From Escherichia phage vB_EcoM-Ro157c2YLVW: a DNA stretch of 64,000 nt. The stretch lies in the sequence record NC_050153.1; one strand, given 5' to 3'. Below, one piece after another: positions 9,121 to 25,132 of this stretch. Each line of letters starts with the position of its first letter. Within the stretch, counting starts at the first letter, position 1. A program made the translations under genes and the position numbers. The notes beneath the pieces are model-generated. The model saw only the letters and a program-made list of their open reading frames with translations, was not told where the DNA came from and ran no database searches.

Positions 9121-9697
9121 ATTGCGGGGCGACTGGCCACTCAACATCCGCTGCTACTGCTGTATCAACACGATTCAACAATACCCGATATGTCTTCCAT
9201 GCAGTCAGTAACGATGCCTCTTCCTCCGTCGCAATATCCAAATCTACGGCATCCTGAAGTGGCGCAATATGCTCACTGGCCATCTGCATCAGGCTGTTTT
9301 TTGTTTCTTCCGCCTTCCGGATCCGGAACAGTTTTTCTGCTTCTGCATCTTTCACCCAGGCTGTGCCGTTCCACTTCTGAAACTCCCCTTCCGGGGATAA
9401 CCAGGTGACATTTTCCGGTAATGGGCCAAGTTCAGAAATAAATAACGCGTCGCCGGAAGCCACGTCATAGACGGTTTTTCCCCGATGGTCTTCAACGAGA
9501 TTCCACGATGCCTCATCACTGTTGAAAACGGCCACGAAGCCAGCCGGAATATCTGGCGGGGCAATATCGGTACTGTTTGCAGGCAGACCTGTATGAGGTG
9601 GAATGTATGCATCACCTTCACCAATAAACTCATTGGTTCCGGTCAGTAGATTATAAATTTTTATGGTCCGTGATTGTTCACTCATTCTGAATGTCAT
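9119..9697 (-). CDS. tail fibre assembly protein (Tfa, U-like)
   Basis: 192-aa ORF directly downstream of the tail fibre gene (stop/start overlap); typical Tfa architecture with conserved N-terminus and variable C-terminus. Confidence 0.75.
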
Positions 9698-12546
9698 TAT
9701 GCAAGCCTCACAATATAGTTAAATGCGATGTTTTTTACGGTGTTTTCTTCGTTACCCGTAGCGTTAACGGTGATGGTGTGTCCGTGGGGACCAATAATGA
9801 CAGAATGGGCATGAGCACCAATGCCGATAGTGTGGTTATGGGCACCGATATATACATTGTGAGCATGCCCGCCTGCGCTCGACGTGGTACCAGTACCTAA
9901 CGCAGCGTTAAAACCGGCTGATACACCATTCCCCGCGCCAGTGTGACCAACAGGTATATTGTGTGAATGATTTCCAGCGCTATTCGTAGTTTTTGTGCCG
10001 TAATCAAATGAACTGGTCGTTTTAGTACCGTAATCAAACGACGATGTGGTTTTCGTCCCCAAATCCGTACTGGATGCGCTGGCGCTGTGGGTGTGCGATT
10101 TAATGCCGTCCTGTTCCTGAGACAATACGGCACGACCACTGCCGGGCTTGCCCTTAATCGTCCAGCCACGCATATCAGGAATAACGCCTGACGGATAAGC
10201 CGCTGCAAGTTTCGGGTATGCAGATTTGTCAAAAGTCTGCCCCTGCATCAGGGCATAACCAGACGGAACGGTATCTGATGGCCACGGGATTGGTGCGCCG
10301 ACTGGGTAGCTTTCTGGTGGAAGATTTTTCGAGGTATAAACTTCTGCCCAGTCTTCCTCAAAACCATAACCGTCTCTTGAAGAACGGTAGAACAGACCAC
10401 CATTTCTGTAATGCGCCTTCATCTGCAAGGTCGGGCAACTTCCGACTCCGGTATAGAAGTTAACCAGAATATAGCTGTCGGCAGAGCGAATGACATTGTA
10501 AGCGCCTGATTCGGCATTCCAGGGAACGCCCCCATCCGCATCGGCATACGTATCCGTTGCTCTTCTGGCAAAAGCAGCAACATGCGCAGCGGTTAAAGTG
10601 ATATCAGTAGAACCATCAAACGAGACGCCATTGATAGTACATGCTGTCTGCAACTTGGTCGCTGTAGCCGCATTACCAGAGGTGTCCTGATCCCCTTTGG
10701 CATTGACGCCGGGAATTGAATCTTTTGACGTATAGACCTGCGCCCATTCAGACCAGTTGGCAGAATCAGTATCACGCCGCGAACGGATATGTACGGGCGC
10801 ATGGTCACCGCTCGTGCCACTCCAGCCAATGAATAACTCACCTTCGCCAGCAGCGGTGGCACCTTTAAGGTGAAGCACATTGCCATAGGTGGAAGGGTAG
10901 CCATTGTTGTATGCCTCATACAGCTGAATCCCGGATGTTCCCTGTGCATTCGCCTCTAGGGCCGTTACGCGACCGCGAGATACCAGAGTATTGATATTAA
11001 TGTCAGCCGAACCATCGAATCTGACGCCATTAATGTTTATGGCTGTTTTTAATTTCGTCGCGGTGTCGGCGTTCCCTGTCAGCGCCCCGGTGATCCCACC
11101 GTTGAAAGTCTGGCGTGCACTCCATTTGTTAGCCGTGCTCAACAGGGGGATCTTTTCACCGCTTGTGCCAAGTTCTCTTAAATCAAGGTATTGGATAACA
11201 GCAAGGACGCTTGTTTTGGCCAGAATATCGCGACCGACTGACGTTAAGTCAGTCTGAGAAATAGTGTCTGTACCGGTAAAGTACGGCAATTTATTTGCGC
11301 CTGTAGCAAGACCAGCAAGCGCGGTTAAAGTTGCATCCAGAGGCTGTTTGCCTGCCAGCGCATTTGTCATTGTTGTCGCAAAGTTCGGGTCATTACCAAG
11401 TGCTGCGGCAAGCTCATTCAGGGTATCAAGAGCTTCTGGTGATGAACCAACCAATGCGGATATGGCAGCTCTTACATAAGCGGTCGTAGCAATCTGCGTG
11501 TTATTCGTACCCTGTGCAGCGGTAGGCGCAGTAGGTATTCCCGTTAATGCAGGACTTGCTAAAGGAGCTTTAAGAGCCAGAGCATTGTTGATAGTTGTGC
11601 TGAAATTCGGGTCGTTATTGATCGCAGCAGCTATTTCTTTAAGCGTATCCAGTGTGCCAGGTGCACCGTTGATAAGTGCCGTTATAGCTGCCTTAACAAA
11701 GGCTGTATTTGCGATCTGCGTGCTATTTGTACCTTGCGCTGCCGTCGGCGCGGTTGGCGTTCCTGTCAGACTCGGGCTTTCTATTGGCGCTTTGGTATCA
11801 GCAAGATCTTTTACAGACTTAACGGCTTTAGGGGTAGCCGCCATTGTTTCGCTGTCGCTGTTAGTTTCGCTACTGAGCTGAACTAATCCCTTTTGCGTTG
11901 TGCTTGCATCCTGCGCCGTATACTTACTGTTCGCCAGATCGTAGGCTTTTTTAACTGCCAGCGAACTTGCAGCAACATCACTTCTGCTACTGGTTACAGA
12001 GTCTGAAATATCAATGCCGATCGTGCGGTTAATACGCTCGGATGTATCAATCATCTCCTGGGTAATGGCTGATACTCCAGCAGGGATATTCACCGTACAA
12101 ACAAGCAGCTCCCCATCTCCTAACTGATATGAATCGGTATAGGTTCTGGTAACAAATTCAGCCGCATGAATATGTGACGCGGTATTAACCTGATAGGTAT
12201 CCTCTCCAAGGAGGTATCTTCCCTTCAGCACAATTGCATATTTCTTGCCTGCACTAAGTGCAAGAGGAATATCCGTACATTGCTGAATAGTTACCTGGTA
12301 GAATTCACCAATATCCACCGACGCCGCGCCTGCGGTTTTATCTCCATCCACTGAGGTGATTAACAGGTTCATCCCACCGCCAGGCTTAGGTAAGAAACCG
12401 GCATAAAATCCCGGGTCAACAATCCCCCTGAATTTTCGGTTTAGCGCGGCTGACAGATATGGTTCGTGGTATTGCACATCAGCAACCAGAGCCAACGACT
12501 CGGGTGATGGGTAAGTAACCGATGTAACAACTGTAACGTCATTCAT
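9697..12546 (-). CDS. tail fibre protein (S-like)
   Basis: Long ORF; likely start at MNDVTVV (ATG 12546, AAGGA RBS); tandem ~55-aa tail-fibre repeats (...[22 protein letters not shown]...) and His-rich C-terminal tip with [10 protein letters not shown] x3 and HxH boxes. Confidence 0.8.
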
Positions 12547-12557
12547 CAAGCATATCC

Positions 12558-12992
12558 TTATGCTGTAGTCGTGTTTATGGCCATAACTGCGGTATATGTT
12601 TTGCCCACATACAGCGAGTCTTCCTGGACACAAATAATGGCGATTGGCTTGTTCTCGTTATCCAGAACAACCAGAGTGTTGAATGGGTAGTTTTTCCCTT
12701 CCTGCAACTGGCTTTGATCAAGGTCCATTCGGACAGTAATTATCCCACCTGAGTAGGTTGGCACGAGGTTGATGGTACAAAATTGGCTGGTCAGTTCTGC
12801 CAGATCGAAAGCCTTTGGCAGTTCTCCAATCTCATAAGTGCCATCTCCTTTCTTAGTAACCAGAGAACTGGTACCGAAAACGGCCTTGCTGATTAAAAAT
12901 CGAGAGCCTTTGTTAATGGACGATTCAGCGCGCCGCTGATAGTAATAGTCCAACAACTGACTCTTATAGAGGTTTGTTGAGACGTCAGACAT
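12558..12992 (-). CDS. tail fibre-associated structural protein (R-like)
   Basis: 144-aa ORF immediately upstream of the tail fibre gene in the same operon. Confidence 0.5.
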
Positions 12993-15696: not shown

Positions 15697-18600
15697 TCAA
15701 CTCTCGCGTAGTCATTCATCAACGGATCATCAATTGACAGTGGTACCGTGCGCATAACGCCCGGCTGAGGCGTGCTGACCTTTACGACAGTTCCCTGGCC
15801 TTTCGCCGAGTCTTTGGTGTGCTCTTCAATCCTGGCAAGCAATGAGGTCATCTGCGCAAACAGCCGCTTCGTTTCACCATCAAGTGAAACGGTATTATCA
15901 GCCAACTGCATTGTCGGCTTGGCACCGGAGCCGCCAAGGTCACTAATAACCTGTCCGTCTATCTGCATACGACCGGTTGGTTGCTGCAAATCGTTGACGG
16001 CAGTCGTCACCTGGGACGTGGAGGCTGGTTCAGGCGCATTATTTTTCCGCATCCCCGGCGAGTTGCGGAGTTTATCGAATAGTCCATCAATCCCCATTTG
16101 TGCGCCGAGTTGGTCAAAGTAACTTGAGTTGCTGGCCACCGGACGCGCCTCTTCAACTGGCATCGGAGTATCAACATACACATTGCCAGCTGCTGTTGCG
16201 GTCCCCTTCCCTCGTGCACGTTCTTCGAGCGTTCCCTGAACGACTTCCCGACGCATACCCCGGCCATTCATGAATTTGTTGACCAGATCGTTAACGCCAA
16301 CAGCATTGCCGATTTTGTCTACCAAACCGCCTTTCTCAAACGGGCTATCACCAGGGGTAAACGCCAGACCAGTAGACTGATCGATAACGGCGTTATCAGG
16401 TAGTGGTTCCCTCACTCCATATTGCGCCCCACCCTGTGCTCCTGCCCCAGGTGTATAGATTTCACCACCTAAATAGCGAGCACGATGAGTATTGACCTTG
16501 ATCGCGTACTCACGGTTTTCCTTCGATAAGTCACCGGTGCCTTTTTTCCACTTATTAATAGTGCCAAACCCAGCGTTATATGCAGTGATGGCCTCGTTTA
16601 AGTCTCCATTGGCTTGCTTCAGATACTTGCTCATGAGAAGAGCCGCAGCTTCTGCCGATTTCACAGGATCAAACGATTCACCTTCAGCTAAGCCAGTCTC
16701 TTCACGAGCAATGCCCGTGAACTGAAACATTCCTAGAGCACCAGTTTGGGATTTTGCGTACGGATTACCACCAGATTCAGTTGCAGCAATCGCGTAAAGA
16801 GTGCCTTCAGGAAGACCATATTTATTCTCCAGTTCAGCAAAATACGGAGCTAACTTATCGAGATTTGCCTTACCTTCAGCGCCAAGGCTTCCGACTTTTA
16901 CATCTAAGTTGCCATTATTGTAGGTATCAGCAGCTTTCTGAATGTCATTCCTGGTGCCGGTGGTATTACGCGACGATGATGACGAGCTATTTTGTCCAAT
17001 AGCTGAATCAATTTTCCGCACCGCGCTATTGCCCGTTTCTACGGCATTTGCATTGATAATCTGATTGGCAGTTTCTTTAACTGTTTTATTGCTATCTTTC
17101 GCCGTGTCCAGTGCCGCATTTATCACGCGGGTAGCAATATTAGTCTGTTTAGCATCGGATTCAGTTTTAGAATCAGATGTCTCCTGGTGGCTATTAACCG
17201 GAGCTTTTAACTCTGGAGTGATTTCTTTTGCATTAGCCTCGCCGATCGGATTGGGTATTTTTGATACAATCATTGCCGCAGGGGTATTTTTAACGGCATC
17301 AACCGCTGCATCTAATGCTTTACCGGGTAAACTTTTAACCCCATCCCAAATATTACCAGCCGCCTCTTTAATGTGTTTTCCTGGGTTCTTAATGAAGTCA
17401 ATTGCACTATCAATTGCATCACTGAAAACCTGTTTCAGGTTATCGACAGTAAAGAAGTCTTTTATGGCATCCAGCTTTTCAAGCAACTTATTAGATGTAT
17501 CGCTAAACCATGCTGAAACAGCATCACCAATCTTTGCTGTGTAATCATCGAACTTGGTAGAAATGGTGTCGCCAAGGTTAGAAATATATGTTTCTAAGTT
17601 GGTAACCCCACTATCAATGGCCTGGGCAATACTTTCCGTCGAAAATGATTGCAACATATTGCCGATATCCTCAAATCCAAGTGATTTGAGAACATCACCA
17701 ATAGCACTGCTAATACCAGATACCAGTCCCCCCATATCGAGAACATTGGCTAACGTATAAGCGGCTTTTTGCTGGAATGATGGATCTTGTCCTGATTTAA
17801 GCCCAAACGCTCGACGTTGCGCTTCTGTATCATTCCAACCGGTTACCGCATCATAAATACCTCCAGCCACTGTGCCGACTAGGGGAATTGCGCGTAACGC
17901 CCCTTTACCAACTGCCTTTAATCCAAGTTTACCTGCTGCCCGGGCAGCCAAATCTCCGCCTTCATGGGCGAGAGTCTTCTTGCCACCACCGCGTAGCATT
18001 CCTACAAGTTTCTTTGCCCCCAGAGCGCCAAAAGCGAGTGCTCCAGCTTTTTTCAGCATGCCACGCCCCATTAACAACGACGCGACGCCACCGGCCCCCT
18101 TCCCTAACAGGCTAAATAGTTTGGACAGCAAGCCGCCCTTCTTTTTACCGGTGTTTTTGGCTATCTGATCAAGGGCGCGGAGAATCTTGTCATTGCCCTC
18201 TTTAATTTCGCTGGTCTGCTCCTGAAGTTCCTGAACCGTCCGTTTTTGGGTGTTAACCTGAACGACATCGGCACTATTTTGCGATTTACGCCTAAAAAAA
18301 CCTTTTCTACGGCTGTTATCGTCATTGCCACGAATCACATCGGCAATAGACTTTCTGGCACCATTAAGCGATCCACCAACTTCTTTTGATATCCCGCCAA
18401 GCTCCTTCCCTGCTGCCCACAATGGACCAGCAACGGCATAACCTAACGCATCGACGGCACGAGTCTCTGAAGGGTTGCCTATGCCTTCAGCTACTTTTGA
18501 CAGTTTTTTTAATAAACCTGATTCAGCATTTAGACGCTCATCATCCTCTTTGCGCCTGGCCTTTTCAGCACGTTCAGCACGGGCATCTTCCGCTGCGGCC

Positions 18601-21275: not shown

Positions 21276-21309
21276 TTAACCGATTCTACGAGTAGTCATT
21301 TGTGACAGG

Positions 21310-21786
21310 TCATTTTGCGCGCTTCAGGCAGCCATCTTCAGGTGCCGCGTTGAAAAGCTCTGCGGCCTTACGTAGCGTAAATGTTGCGATTTTTTTTCCG
21401 TCTACGTATGCATCGAATGTTTTAACTTCCATATCAGGGGTATCTGACCAAAAACCATACCAGTAACTATCACCCACAGAGGAACCGATAGAACTGATAG
21501 GATATTCATCATCACCAACTTTCAGCGTTATTTGTTCTTTTTTAGCATCAAATGACTCACCGCCAGGTTCTGTTTTCATGAGAGTGAGTAGTCGTGTTCC
21601 TACTTGATTGGGATCCGTATTATTAAATTCAACATCGCACTCAAATGTAAGCGTATAATTATCTTTGCTGGAAACAGCATAAGAACGAACACCATGAGTC
21701 TCGCCGGTTGACCATTTGCTTACATTTGCCATTGATGAAAACGGAGTAAGCAAAGCAATAACTAGTAAAAATCGTTTGATGCGCAT
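21310..21786 (-). CDS. secreted protein with N-terminal signal peptide (sim-region candidate)
   Basis: 158-aa ORF; MRIKRFLLVIALLTPFSSMA signal-like N-terminus. Confidence 0.5.
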   Translation of the reverse strand: MRIKRFLLVIALLTPFSSMANVSKWSTGETHGVRSYAVSSKDNYTLTFECDVEFNNTDPNQVGTRLLTLMKTEPGGESFDAKKEQITLKVGDDEYPISSIGSSVGDSYWYGFWSDTPDMEVKTFDAYVDGKKIATFTLRKAAELFNAAPEDGCLKRAK

Positions 21787-21837
21787 TAATTTATCTCCTT
21801 TGGATATTAATATTTTAATTAGTTAACCACCATATAT

Positions 21838-22485
21838 TCACCATTCATAGGGTAAATTAAGCGCTTTTAAACCTTGCTGGAAAGTATTAAGAGATCCGTT
21901 TTTTTGTTGTTCCATTTTTTCGCGTGCAGCTTTCTCATACTGCTCCATCCGTTGGTTATACTCTTGCAATTCCTCCGGGGAGAGGTTTCCCATTGGGGAG
22001 TTTGTACCCGGCCCCCTGGCCCGTTCTTCAAGCGTACCCTGAACGTTTTGATGGCGCATTCCCGGTGAGTTTCTGATTGAATCAATGCCATTTCTTCCAA
22101 CGTCTTCTTTATTAACGGCATTGCTCGCCACCAGCACACCCCAGCTAGGAATAGCAAAATCAGGAGCGGTTTCGCATGCCTTTACCATATAATCGAAAGA
22201 GCTTCGATTGATCTCGTTTGCGTCGGGATTTAACAGGCGAGAATATTGATATTTAGCATTTTCGTTGGTTGCGACTTTATACAGTTCTTGCTGCACCATC
22301 GCTTCAGAAAGTTTAAGGCGTTTCATATCTGACAGTAACTTCTTGCGCATGGATTCGTCTTGACTGACAGCAAAGCCGTAAACGTGCCCAAGGTATTTCG
22401 TATAATCGGTACAAATCTCCTTTACGCTTGATGCTGCATTAACAGTCCCAGCCATAAATAATAACGGTAGTAATAGTTTTCTCAT
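21838..22485 (-). CDS. secreted protein carrying a Sit-like motif (candidate superinfection-exclusion, sim-like)
   Basis: Start at MRKLLLPLLFMAGTVNAA (GGTGAGG RBS); segment NAVNKEDVGRNGIDSIRNSPGMRHQNVQGTLEERARGPGT matches Sit ...NAVGVNDLVNKFMNGRGMRREVVQGTLEERARGKGT. Confidence 0.55.
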   Translation of the reverse strand: MRKLLLPLLFMAGTVNAASSVKEICTDYTKYLGHVYGFAVSQDESMRKKLLSDMKRLKLSEAMVQQELYKVATNENAKYQYSRLLNPDANEINRSSFDYMVKACETAPDFAIPSWGVLVASNAVNKEDVGRNGIDSIRNSPGMRHQNVQGTLEERARGPGTNSPMGNLSPEELQEYNQRMEQYEKAAREKMEQQKNGSLNTFQQGLKALNLPYEW

Positions 22486-22581
22486 TATAACCTCACCTGC
22501 CTTATAACTCATTTAGGGTACATATTTTCGCCTTTAAAAAAAAGAGGTTATTAGATCCAGTTGTGTATTTACTAATCAGAT

Positions 22582-22598
22582 AATGCTCTAATAGATTT
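22582..22598 (+). promoter_or_regulatory. repressor operator-like site upstream of immI (AATGCTCTAATAGATTT)
   Basis: 15/17 match to the recurring ATTGCTCTAATAAATTT motif. Confidence 0.45.
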
Positions 22599-22695
22599 GT
22601 ATTTTTAAGTCGCGAATGCTATCTTTTCGCATCATATTGACCTTTTAATCGTTCAGGCTTATAGTTCCGCCGTCGTAGCAAATTCTGCGACCGGG

Positions 22696-22717
22696 TTTAG
22701 CAGCCTGAATGATTGTG
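22696..22717 (+). promoter_or_regulatory. upstream c4 target repeat (a1/b1-like)
   Basis: TTTAGCAG...GATTGTG is complementary to CACAATC and CTGCTAA in the predicted c4 RNA. Confidence 0.5.
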
Positions 22718-22785
22718 CGGACAGCCGCAGATATCCGATATTGCGGTATTTTTGTGTCCGTAAAACCGCGTTACGCCCAAATTAT

Positions 22786-22858
22786 GGTGGGGCGTGATGG
22801 GGAGGCTTCGGCCTGCTGGTTTCACAATCGCCAGTCTGCTAACCCCGTCACGTCCTGC
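22786..22858 (+). ncRNA. c4: c4-like antisense repressor RNA (immI)
   Basis: Structured segment with stem TGATGGGG/CCCCGTCA enclosing single-stranded CACAATC and CTGCTAA, complementary to repeats at 22696-22717 and 22864-22900. Confidence 0.5.
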
Positions 22859-22863
22859 CACCT

Positions 22864-22905
22864 GTTTAGCAGCGGGTAGCAGGTTGTTAAACCTGATTGT
22901 GAGGC
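22864..22905 (+). promoter_or_regulatory. downstream c4 target repeat (a2/b2-like) covering the icd RBS
   Basis: TTTAGCAGCGGG...CCTGATTGTGAGG; the GAGG at 22901-22904 is the RBS for the ATG at 22913. Confidence 0.5.
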
Positions 22906-22912
22906 CGTAACT

Positions 22913-23134
22913 ATGGTTAATGCCAATCCTTGCGCACGCCCAGAATTCATCTGGCGTTTCTATTCCTGTAAAAAACACCACTATCACTTCGTTATCGCAG
23001 CAACTGAAGACGAAGCACGCTCTCAATTGCCTGATGGCCCCTGCATTTTTACTGCCCGTTTTTCAACTGACTCGCGCAATTCACTTAGTTACTGGAGCCT
23101 CCCCTTCTCTGCCAACGTTCAGGGGGGTTTATGA
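22913..23134 (+). CDS. icd: Icd-like small protein, translationally coupled to ant
   Basis: 73-aa ORF; stop overlaps ant start (ATGA at 23131-23134). Confidence 0.6.
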   Translation: MVNANPCARPEFIWRFYSCKKHHYHFVIAATEDEARSQLPDGPCIFTARFSTDSRNSLSYWSLPFSANVQGGL

Positions 23135-24168
23135 AAACACCTCTCGTCACCCGTAATGAAATAGCCGAAGCGATCGCTTTGCATACAACCTGTATGCCGA
23201 CACGGGAGATCCCCGGCGCAATTGCCAACTATTTCATGATAACCAGACGTTTTTATACCCGAACAGATAAGGCTGTGATCAACAGGCTACTGATAGCCGA
23301 GATCAGGGATTATTTGATTGAACAAGGACGTCTACGTTACGCAACAGTGGCAGCAGAAATGAGAAAGGAGGCGCGCAGAATGACCGGTAATAATTTGAAT
23401 GTTGAAAAACCAGCACCTGTTGCTTCAGCTACGCCATCACCAGCAGTGAATGTTATCTCCAACACCGGAGACACAATCGACAGCCTGACACTGTTAAAGA
23501 TGGTCAATGAAGCGCGTAAGTTATGTGGGGAACCAGAGGTTCGGAACAACAAATTCATCGAAAAAATACTCGATGAGCTTGATGGTGAGCACTACACAAA
23601 AAGTGTAGTGGAAAAAATGAACAAAACATCAATGCTTGTCATAACCATGACTTTCAAACAAGCCCTGCGAGTCGCCGCGCGCGAGTCAAAAGCGGTCCGC
23701 CGTTCGCTGATCGACAAACTGGAAGAATTGCAGCAGGCAAACTCCCCTGCCCCATCGATCCCCCAAACATTACCAGAAGCTCTACGCCTGGCTGCCGAGT
23801 TGGCAGAACAGAAAATGCAGCTGGAACAACAGCTGGTGGCCGCAGCCCCTAAAGTCGATTTTGCCGACCGGGTATCAGTGGCTAATGGAATCCTGATCGG
23901 GAACTTTGCAAAGGTCGTTGGACTTAAGCAAAACGCCCTTTTCTCATGGTTGCGCCAGAACGGCATTCTCATGGCTTTTGGTGCGCGCAAAAACGTACCG
24001 CGCCAACAGTACATCAACGCCGGGTATTTCACGGTGAAAGAAGTGGTGCTGGATGATGAAAATGGCTACCAGATACGGCTGACGCCCCAATTAACGGGTA
24101 AAGGCCAGCAGTGGTTAACTCGCAAGCTACTTGATGCTGGTTTGTTAAAACCAGTAGCAATAGGTTAA
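23131..24168 (+). CDS. ant: antirepressor Ant (Ant1, with in-frame internal start for Ant2 at 23380)
   Basis: 345-aa ORF; C-terminal antirepressor domain shared with KilA (...LPEALRLAAELAEQK...GKGQQWL...LLDAGLL); internal ATG 23380 preceded by AAGGAGG. Confidence 0.75.
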   Translation: MKTPLVTRNEIAEAIALHTTCMPTREIPGAIANYFMITRRFYTRTDKAVINRLLIAEIRDYLIEQGRLRYATVAAEMRKEARRMTGNNLNVEKPAPVASATPSPAVNVISNTGDTIDSLTLLKMVNEARKLCGEPEVRNNKFIEKILDELDGEHYTKSVVEKMNKTSMLVITMTFKQALRVAARESKAVRRSLIDKLEELQQANSPAPSIPQTLPEALRLAAELAEQKMQLEQQLVAAAPKVDFADRVSVANGILIGNFAKVVGLKQNALFSWLRQNGILMAFGARKNVPRQQYINAGYFTVKEVVLDDENGYQIRLTPQLTGKGQQWLTRKLLDAGLLKPVAIG

Positions 24169-24331: not shown

Positions 24332-25132
24332 ATGCAACAAACATTCAATGCGGATATGAATATATCAAACCTTCATCAAAATGTCGATCCTTCAACCACT
24401 CTGCCTGTTATTTGTGGTGTTGAAATTACGACCGACCGCGCTGGCCGTTACAACCTTAATGCTCTACACAGAGCGAGCGGACTCGGTGCCCATAAAGCGC
24501 CAGCTCAATGGCTAAGAACGCTGTCAGCCAAACAGCTCATCGAAGAGCTTGAAAAAGAAACTATGCAGAATTGCATAGTTTCGTTCGAAGGCCGTGGCGG
24601 CGGCACTTTTGCCCATGAATTGCTCGCTGTGGAGTACGCAGGCTGGATTTCTCCCGCGTTTCGGCTGAAGGTAAACCAGACATTTATCGACTATCGAGCC
24701 GGAAGATTACAACCTGCTATTCCGCAGAGTCTCCCTGAAGCTCTCCGTTTGGCTGCCGACCTGGCAGAGCAAAAGCAACGGCTGGAGCAAAAAATGCTTA
24801 TGGATGCACCTAAAGTCGAATTCGCCGAACGCGTTGCTACCGCCAGCGGAGTTCTAATCGGCAACTATGCCAAAGTGCTCGGCCTGGGCCAAAACTATCT
24901 CTTCACCTGGTTGCGTGATAACGGAATTCTGATCGCAACCGGTGAACGCAGGAACGTCCCCAAACAAGAATACATATCCCGTGGGTATTTCACCCTTAAA
25001 GAAACCGTGATCGATACAAGCAATGGAAGCAGGATTTCTTTCACGACTCGTATAACCGGCAAAGGTCAGCAGTGGCTGATGAAGCGATTGCTTGATGCTG
25101 GTGTGCTGGTACCTGTCGCGGCAACGCGCTAA
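24332..25132 (+). CDS. kilA: KilA (KilA-N DNA-binding domain plus antirepressor-type C-terminal domain)
   Basis: 266-aa ORF; C-terminal 120 aa paralogous to Ant. Confidence 0.7.
   Translation: MQQTFNADMNISNLHQNVDPSTTLPVICGVEITTDRAGRYNLNALHRASGLGAHKAPAQWLRTLSAKQLIEELEKETMQNCIVSFEGRGGGTFAHELLAVEYAGWISPAFRLKVNQTFIDYRAGRLQPAIPQSLPEALRLAADLAEQKQRLEQKMLMDAPKVEFAERVATASGVLIGNYAKVLGLGQNYLFTWLRDNGILIATGERRNVPKQEYISRGYFTLKETVIDTSNGSRISFTTRITGKGQQWLMKRLLDAGVLVPVAATR

Follow-up and report, generated by a model that had tools for sequence, protein, structure and literature searches.

A predicted secreted SimA-family protein of a P1-like prophage shares a short segment with the injection protein Sit

We have analysed a stretch of 64,000 nucleotides from Escherichia phage vB_EcoM-Ro157c2YLVW (sequence record NC_050153.1; hereafter the window), in which a minus-strand gene next to the immunity region encodes a SimA-like protein with a predicted signal peptide and a short segment homologous to Sit, the tape-measure and injection protein. 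Over the region from sit to ant the window is 97-99% identical in DNA to phages P1 and P7 and therefore comes from a P1-like plasmid prophage. The passage of DNA across the periplasm and the inner membrane in contractile-tailed phages such as P1 is poorly understood, as is the role of the tape-measure protein after ejection, and a peptide common only to Sit and a secreted prophage protein points to a stretch of some 25 residues that probably serves in an interaction.

The SimA-like gene and its locus

On one side of the gene lies the late operon pmgC-tub-pmgB-sit, on the other the immI region (Table 1). Its ATG at 22485 is preceded, at a distance of 7 nucleotides, by the Shine-Dalgarno sequence GGTGAGG; an alternative ATG upstream, at 22512, adds nine residues and gives a product of 224 amino acids, and it is this numbering that is used for all BLASTP positions of the protein below. 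The N-terminus reads MRKLLLPLLFMAGTVNA up to the predicted cleavage site and ASS beyond it, typical of the Sec type as judged by eye from the sequence, and the n, h and c regions of the signal peptide together with the VNA/A cleavage site are conserved across members of the SimA family. The original prediction had placed the gene beside an immunity region, correctly so, since the C4 antisense RNA of immI and, at 22659-22711, its a1b1 target lie next to it, followed by icd and ant.

Table 1. Positions of the SimA-like gene, the segments it shares with Sit and the neighbouring features in the window
Feature	Position	Strand	Basis and remarks
Full-length SimA-family gene (phrog_3933, function not assigned)	21838..22485	-	Open reading frame list; 215 amino acids
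Predicted Sec signal peptide MRKLLLPLLFMAGTVNA, cleavage after VNA	22435..22485	-	Read by eye from the translation
Sit-like segment NAVNKEDVGRNGIDSIRNSPGMRHQNVQGTLEERARGPGTNSPMGNL of the SimA-like protein	21982..22122	-	BLASTP E 7e-9; PHROG Sit profile E 1.3e-7
sit, tape-measure/injection transglycosylase, 1130 amino acids	15693..19085	-	97-99% DNA identity to sit of P1 and P7
Sit motif copy 1, residues 927-969, NAVGVNDLVNKFMNGRGMRREVVQGTLEERARGKGTATAAGNV	16179..16307	-	BLASTP and alignment
Sit motif copy 2, DGLFDKLRNSPGMRKN	16041..16088	-	BLASTP and alignment; within the P1-type-specific insert
YfjT-family (PF27224) secreted partner gene, 158 amino acids	21310..21786	-	Homologues carry PF27224
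Cassette replaceable relative to P1	21304..22345	-	blastn breakpoints
C4 antisense RNA of immI	22780..22865	+	Rfam RF01695, 69.6 bits; divergent from the SimA-like gene

The segment common to the SimA-like protein and Sit

Alignment of the two proteins by BLASTP places residues 131-177 of the SimA-like protein on residues 927-969 of Sit, with 23 of 47 positions identical (49%, 43.1 bits, E 7e-9), and residues 143-156 on a second stretch of Sit, residues 1003-1016 (FDKLRNSPGMRKNN), with 9 of 14 identical (E 0.004). The conserved C-terminal Sit peptide GMR...VQGTLEERARG is thus present in the SimA-like protein. Both the homology and the second partial copy in Sit, LRNSPGMRKNN, had been claimed in the original prediction and both are confirmed by these alignments, at positions that had been given only approximately but in the right places. 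The Sit-family profile in PHROG, phrog_2533, matches residues 138-180 of the SimA-like protein at profile positions 929-972 (E 1.3e-7), and 500 shuffles of the protein reach at most 32.3 bits, to be compared with the 43.1 observed. The similarity is local, spanning 43-47 residues; homology to Sit over the whole length of the protein was not found, and Pfam gives no SLT domain in the 224-residue product. In Sit itself the motif lies outside the SLT domain (PF01464, residues 748-857, E 2e-27), ∼85 residues further downstream. When all six frames of the 64-kb window are translated the core pattern with GMR appears only at the three genuine copies, and the five other matches to the pattern read GVR by chance and have dissimilar flanks.

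In order to gauge how specific the segment is, a two-sequence profile of it was scored against 1.84 billion cluster representatives with a threshold of E ≤ 0.001. Ten proteins were obtained: three of the Sit type (1081-1124 residues), three of the SimA type (191-222 residues), three fragments of these, and a single spurious match, a tandem-repeat protein that fits only LEERxRGxG. That the segment might be a low-complexity motif common among unrelated proteins, which the original prediction had named as what would refute it, is therefore not what is found. A word-indexed search with a 13-sequence alignment of the motif returned three fragments only and added nothing.

A comparison of the DNA, which had been suggested together with that of the proteins, establishes that over 26 aligned codons 50 of 78 nucleotides are identical between the SimA-like gene and sit. 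Within VQGTLEERARGxGT 13 of the 14 residues are the same despite 7 synonymous codon differences, AGG versus CGA among them, and the identity is therefore maintained at the level of the protein and does not stem from a recent copy of DNA. Across family members that are 54-66% identical, with insertions and deletions around the motif, the core N-x-x-G-M-R-x-Q has invariant N, G, R and Q residues and a nearly invariant M, GMR being retained (with one GVR) in every full-length SimA-family member examined. In 11 diverged Sit proteins the motif falls in a conserved island, residues 901-960, where identity to the reference is 0.73-0.80, with flanks at 0.2-0.4. The motif is old, and in both its SimA-like and its Sit contexts it is under constraint as a protein sequence.

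The region of the second copy in Sit (16041-16178, residues ∼970-1032) is an insert of the P1 type, which D6-like Sit proteins lack. Two alleles of it exist, LRNSPGMRKNN and LINARGMRSNN, and both combine freely with whichever simA state an element has. A distant Sit, in locus L078, has the motif without any simA or yfjT genes, so that the motif must be native to Sit and its role there independent of SimA.

Family, alleles and the relation to P1 simA

The phrog_3933 profile matches the SimA-like protein over its full length (residues 10-224, profile positions 1-213 of 213, E 1.1e-136), and 22 homologues were found with identities of 54-99%; the family is annotated in RefSeq as hypothetical. The genes are found only in P1-like elements of ∼90 kb, and the cassette is present in 118 of 5,426 complete E. 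coli genomes, 118 of its 120 places being on plasmids. Other resources were silent: NCBIfam provides nothing meaningful for the protein, a profile of the SimA family finds nothing at E ≤ 10 among PDB sequences, and no PADLOC-DB defence model matches either protein of the cassette. A PTP-like phytase assignment (PF14566) was considered and rejected, as the score is 26.4 bits for a cutoff of 27, only profile positions 47-132 are covered and no CX5R is seen.

In the layout of the protein the signal peptide is followed by a conserved helical N-terminal domain of ∼115 residues that has two conserved cysteines (in the contexts CTDYT and CETAPD), a linker and a variable C-terminus. The linker carries a conserved KEDxG and then the peptide [F/I]-x-N-x-x-G-M-R-x-Q, which in the window allele is extended by VQGTLEERARGxGT. 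Alleles were compared over ∼75 loci, and the counts that follow are approximate. The 215-residue allele of the window type, which combines the VQGTLEERARG extension with a charged helix, accounts for ∼24 loci, as does the stub of the P1 type, devoid of any C-terminal content; a common natural allele of 163 residues (∼13 loci) ends three residues past the motif (…ERARGPGVAP, then stop). The remaining forms come from a few loci each: a 179-residue allele from Salmonella with VEGTLESRARG, alleles of 191-197 and 246 residues in which GMRxQ precedes one or two modules with a pair of cysteines, and alleles of 212 and 222 residues that have the extension and a cysteine module. Given the 163-residue allele, the N-terminal domain and the motif together are the unit that is retained. 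This allele (L029-L041, for example L034 8001-10051) has different genes downstream, coding for a 168-residue secreted protein and including an extra gene of 325 amino acids, and the place where it ends together with this change of neighbours puts a recombination breakpoint right behind the motif. The 168-residue protein in L034 (ending …DGCLKQYDGE) looks YfjT-like, by eye only.

The first 57 residues of the SimA-like protein are 88% (87.7%) identical to the P1 SimA region. Homology to P1 DNA runs from c4 to 22346, about codon 55 of the reading frame, and resumes at 21303, whereas with P7 it breaks off at 22584 and is regained at 21308, as established with blastn; the homologous P1 stretch is window 22346-22512 versus L002 7518-7676. 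P1 SimA has 52 residues and ends seven residues past the recombination breakpoint, so that P1, which carries simB-simC in the position of the cassette, keeps just the 5' 50-odd codons as simA. Thus simB-simC of P1 (in place of window 21304-22345) and upf50.0/upf50.5 of P7 (in place of 21309-22583) are alternative cassettes. Diverged P1/D6-like elements of Salmonella, Klebsiella, Enterobacter and Cronobacter carry full-length homologues at the corresponding place, and the intact gene is therefore the ancestral one. P1 simA is a 5' stub, left behind after simB-simC had replaced the rest of the gene, and earlier remarks that P1 acquired sim recently fit this reading (PMC6906374). P1 SimA (AAQ14017, "putative superimmunity accessory function") shares with the window protein the locus, the orientation next to Oc4/c4 and the signal peptide, and it differs in lacking most of the N-terminal domain, the Sit-like motif and the tail, whereas the window gene is intact and apparently ancestral.

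The label "sim-like", used in the original prediction, is appropriate in the SimA sense only. The protein is the intact form of SimA. To SimC, which is the one that the annotation credits with superimmunity, it has no relation, and no similarity was found (best BLASTP E 27). Likewise, P7 Upf50.0 (DUF5384) has no similarity to the SimA-like protein, its helical tail included, and none to Sit was detected in SimB, SimC, Upf50.0, Upf50.5 or the YfjT-like protein. The C-termini of the SimA-like protein (…LPYEW, 21838-21850) and of Upf50.0 (…ASSWW, L001 6233-6245) are both aromatic, which recalls the aromatic C-terminal signals of outer-membrane proteins that periplasmic PDZ proteases recognise, a likeness that is pure speculation.

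In every long locus obtained by protein look-up, across diverged lineages, the YfjT-family gene comes next after the SimA-like gene. The partner in the window is 56% identical to its counterpart next to the simA-like gene in L006; the adjacency holds even where both genes have diverged to ∼55-60% identity, and the products of both have signal peptides. In diverged P1/D6-like phage-plasmids the pair directly precedes the operon pmgC-tub-pmgB-sit, and a motif-bearing Sit is encoded in every SimA-like locus that reaches far enough.

Several further features were noted. An open frame of 96 codons (21867-22157, minus strand) overlaps the 3' half of the SimA-like gene in an alternative frame, and in five variants from Logan assemblies (P0002, P0004, P0007, P0008 and P0016) a single-base deletion leads into it, giving products of 205 residues. 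These were rejected as programmed products; they are most simply taken as pseudogenes or assembly errors, which share the one frame that can be reached by a 1-nucleotide deletion. Beyond the immunity region Ant1 (345 residues, 23131-24168, plus strand) and the 266-residue protein that comes next (24332-25132, plus strand) are similar in their C-terminal halves (…PQ[TS]LPEALRLAA[ED]LAEQK…), which looks like a common domain, presumably of the known KilA-C/ANT type, the gene of the 266-residue protein being presumably in the position of P1 kilA. Finally, a tail-fibre protein of 978 residues (9697-12633, minus strand) has a short tandem peptide repeat near its C-terminal region, with two full copies and a partial third.

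Possible roles and known exclusion systems

The reading that fits best, which we put forward tentatively, is competitive motif mimicry, by which the secreted protein may occupy the partner of the Sit peptide and exclude related phages after adsorption. The prophage would make the SimA-like protein and export it to the periplasm, where it would display the peptide with which an incoming Sit docks on a periplasmic or inner-membrane partner or on a component of the tail; with the partner occupied the Sit of superinfecting P1-like phages would be outcompeted and DNA entry blocked after adsorption. The protein might act together with the co-inherited secreted protein of the YfjT family. The periplasmic decoy that had been proposed in the original prediction is in part supported and plausible, as a signal peptide, a peptide specific to Sit and SimA, conservation at the protein level and the position of a superimmunity gene are all present, the gene being located, adjacent to immI, in the cassette that in P1 holds simB-simC, genes with a superimmunity annotation. 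In favour of mimicry count also the significance of the similarity to Sit, the 163-residue allele with its retained motif, the presence of a motif-bearing Sit in the elements that have the gene, the lack of Sit similarity in the other cassette proteins, and the precedent of exclusion proteins directed at tape-measure or ejection proteins (PMC10883804). The broader proposition, that a periplasmic decoy bearing the motif of their own tape-measure protein allows P1-like prophages to protect their hosts and that the motif also marks a docking step of Sit, on a host factor or a tail-tip partner, needed for the delivery of DNA, strikes us as somewhat doubtful.

A number of observations weigh against motif mimicry. 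The SimA-like gene has been lost from about a third of the P1-type elements, which have the P1 remnant or a P7-type replacement instead, and it is thus dispensable and replaceable. Matching between the motif of a SimA-like protein and that of its own Sit is not significant (p 0.11 for the 12-residue core and 0.24 for 29 residues, in eight lineages that are not independent); there are suggestive pairs, NSPGMR/NSPGMR in the window, NARGMR/NARGMR in L045 and DKFxxAPGMRHQ in L005, and mismatched ones in L019, L028 and L033. A consensus scan of the minus strand upstream of the gene gave no strong promoter, and the one pointer to expression in the lysogen is a predicted PsimA promoter in the P1 annotation. 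The AlphaFold2 (AF2) model of the SimA-like protein, built from an alignment of 11 sequences, has a mean predicted local distance difference test score (pLDDT) of 42 and lends no support to the motif being disordered or exposed. Finally, Sit was not resolved in cryo-electron microscopy work on P1 (PMC12810830), and its motif is not known to have a partner.

Much of the evidence can be accommodated in other ways. The peptide could be an element through which Sit associates with itself, or with a tail or hub protein, to build a conduit across the envelope, and the secreted protein would then act as a poison subunit, binding the ejected Sit or the open tail tip and capping the assembly or causing it to go wrong. 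We consider this unlikely, although the P1-type Sit does have two copies of the element, ∼68 residues apart, as expected of an interaction module that is repeated, the tail lumen holds Sit in multiple copies (PMC12810830) and phages escape known exclusion proteins through changes in tape-measure or ejection proteins (PMC10883804); the specificity and conservation of the motif speak for it just as well. D6-like Sit proteins, however, have a single copy, self-association of the motif is purely conjectural, and the lack of covariation with the cognate Sit (p 0.11, 0.24) counts here too. The same lack of covariation, along with the frequent loss or replacement of the gene and the absence of a PADLOC defence match, would instead favour a function outside exclusion altogether, with the motif a generic peptide for targeting to or anchoring in the envelope (by way of peptidoglycan, a chaperone or a protease, for instance) and the SimA-like and YfjT-like proteins a module for lysogenic conversion or envelope maintenance. 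Such a role is improbable, as a generic peptide should recur in other families, yet this one is confined to Sit and SimA-like proteins of P1-like elements among the 1.84 billion representatives, and superimmunity genes are what the locus otherwise carries. The present data do not discriminate between competition for a host partner, direct poisoning of Sit assembly and a role outside exclusion.

The pairing of the two secreted proteins admits a further scheme, in which the motif is a ligand of the YfjT-like protein, and this protein would be held or regulated by the SimA-like protein through the motif and would capture or sense the incoming Sit by means of the same peptide. That the genes are adjacent in every long locus from the protein look-up, even at ∼55-60% identity, and that both products have signal peptides would agree with this, but an interaction between the motif and the YfjT-like protein is purely conjectural and the joint replacement of both genes in P1 is compatible with any joint function; we regard the scheme as quite improbable. 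Strongly disfavoured, and very unlikely indeed, is that the segment has no function, being a piece of sit copied by recombination into its neighbour or a match due to chance or low complexity. The region is admittedly a hotspot of recombination with mosaic cassettes (PMC6906374). Against this stand the E value of 7e-9, shuffles that reach at most 32 bits versus the 43 observed, the absence of the motif from unrelated proteins, synonymous divergence with amino-acid identity, and a core that is kept in all of the diverged full-length homologues.

Whatever the function turns out to be, P1 simA is re-annotated here as a gene remnant, and a widespread pair of hypothetical genes, almost always on plasmids, is defined. 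The motif, with natural alleles that have or do not have the extension, provides a direct experimental handle. Should a role in exclusion prove true, motif mimicry would be added to the mechanisms of exclusion, and the "sim" position would be explained as a site where cassettes for secreted proteins are swapped in P1, P7 and their relatives.

P1 SimC is also encoded by a prophage in the same cassette position and also has a signal peptide, and it differs in having neither sequence similarity to the window protein nor a Sit-like motif. Sim itself, studied by Kliem and Dreiseikelmann in 1989 and by Maillou and Dreiseikelmann in 1990, is reportedly processed and periplasmic and said to block infection by P1 after adsorption. 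Exclusion by way of the tape-measure or ejection protein is established for a class that includes Ltp of TP-J34, gp15 of HK97 and SieA of P22 (PMC10883804). These prophage-encoded envelope proteins block DNA injection, and escape from them maps to tape-measure or ejection proteins (PMC10883804, PMC3952083). They are, however, a lipoprotein or proteins of the inner membrane, whereas the SimA-like candidate is predicted to be soluble and secreted and has a copy of a target peptide; in the literature found, no sequence in common with the target is reported for Ltp, gp15 or SieA. Spackle (Sp) of T4 is a phage-encoded envelope factor that interferes, in superinfection, with a cell-wall hydrolase borne by the tail (PMC11436027), and Sit does have an SLT domain. 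The peptide shared with the SimA-like protein is outside that domain, however, and nothing points to the inhibition of an enzyme.

The TolB and TonB boxes of colicins are short peptides in probably flexible regions that engage periplasmic machinery, and a second carrier of such a motif could block entry; the analogy with the SimA-like motif is conceptual only, with no resemblance in sequence. Our literature search gave no paper that deals with full-length SimA, the Sit motif or exclusion of the decoy type; the description of the P1 genome by Lobocka et al. (2004) was outside this search and might hold a prior mention. If true, a decoy based on mimicry of a tape-measure peptide may be the first superinfection exclusion of its kind in the literature found. 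Exclusion aimed at an injection protein is known, and it is plausible that the new element, in what is a candidate exclusion protein, is mimicry of the motif.
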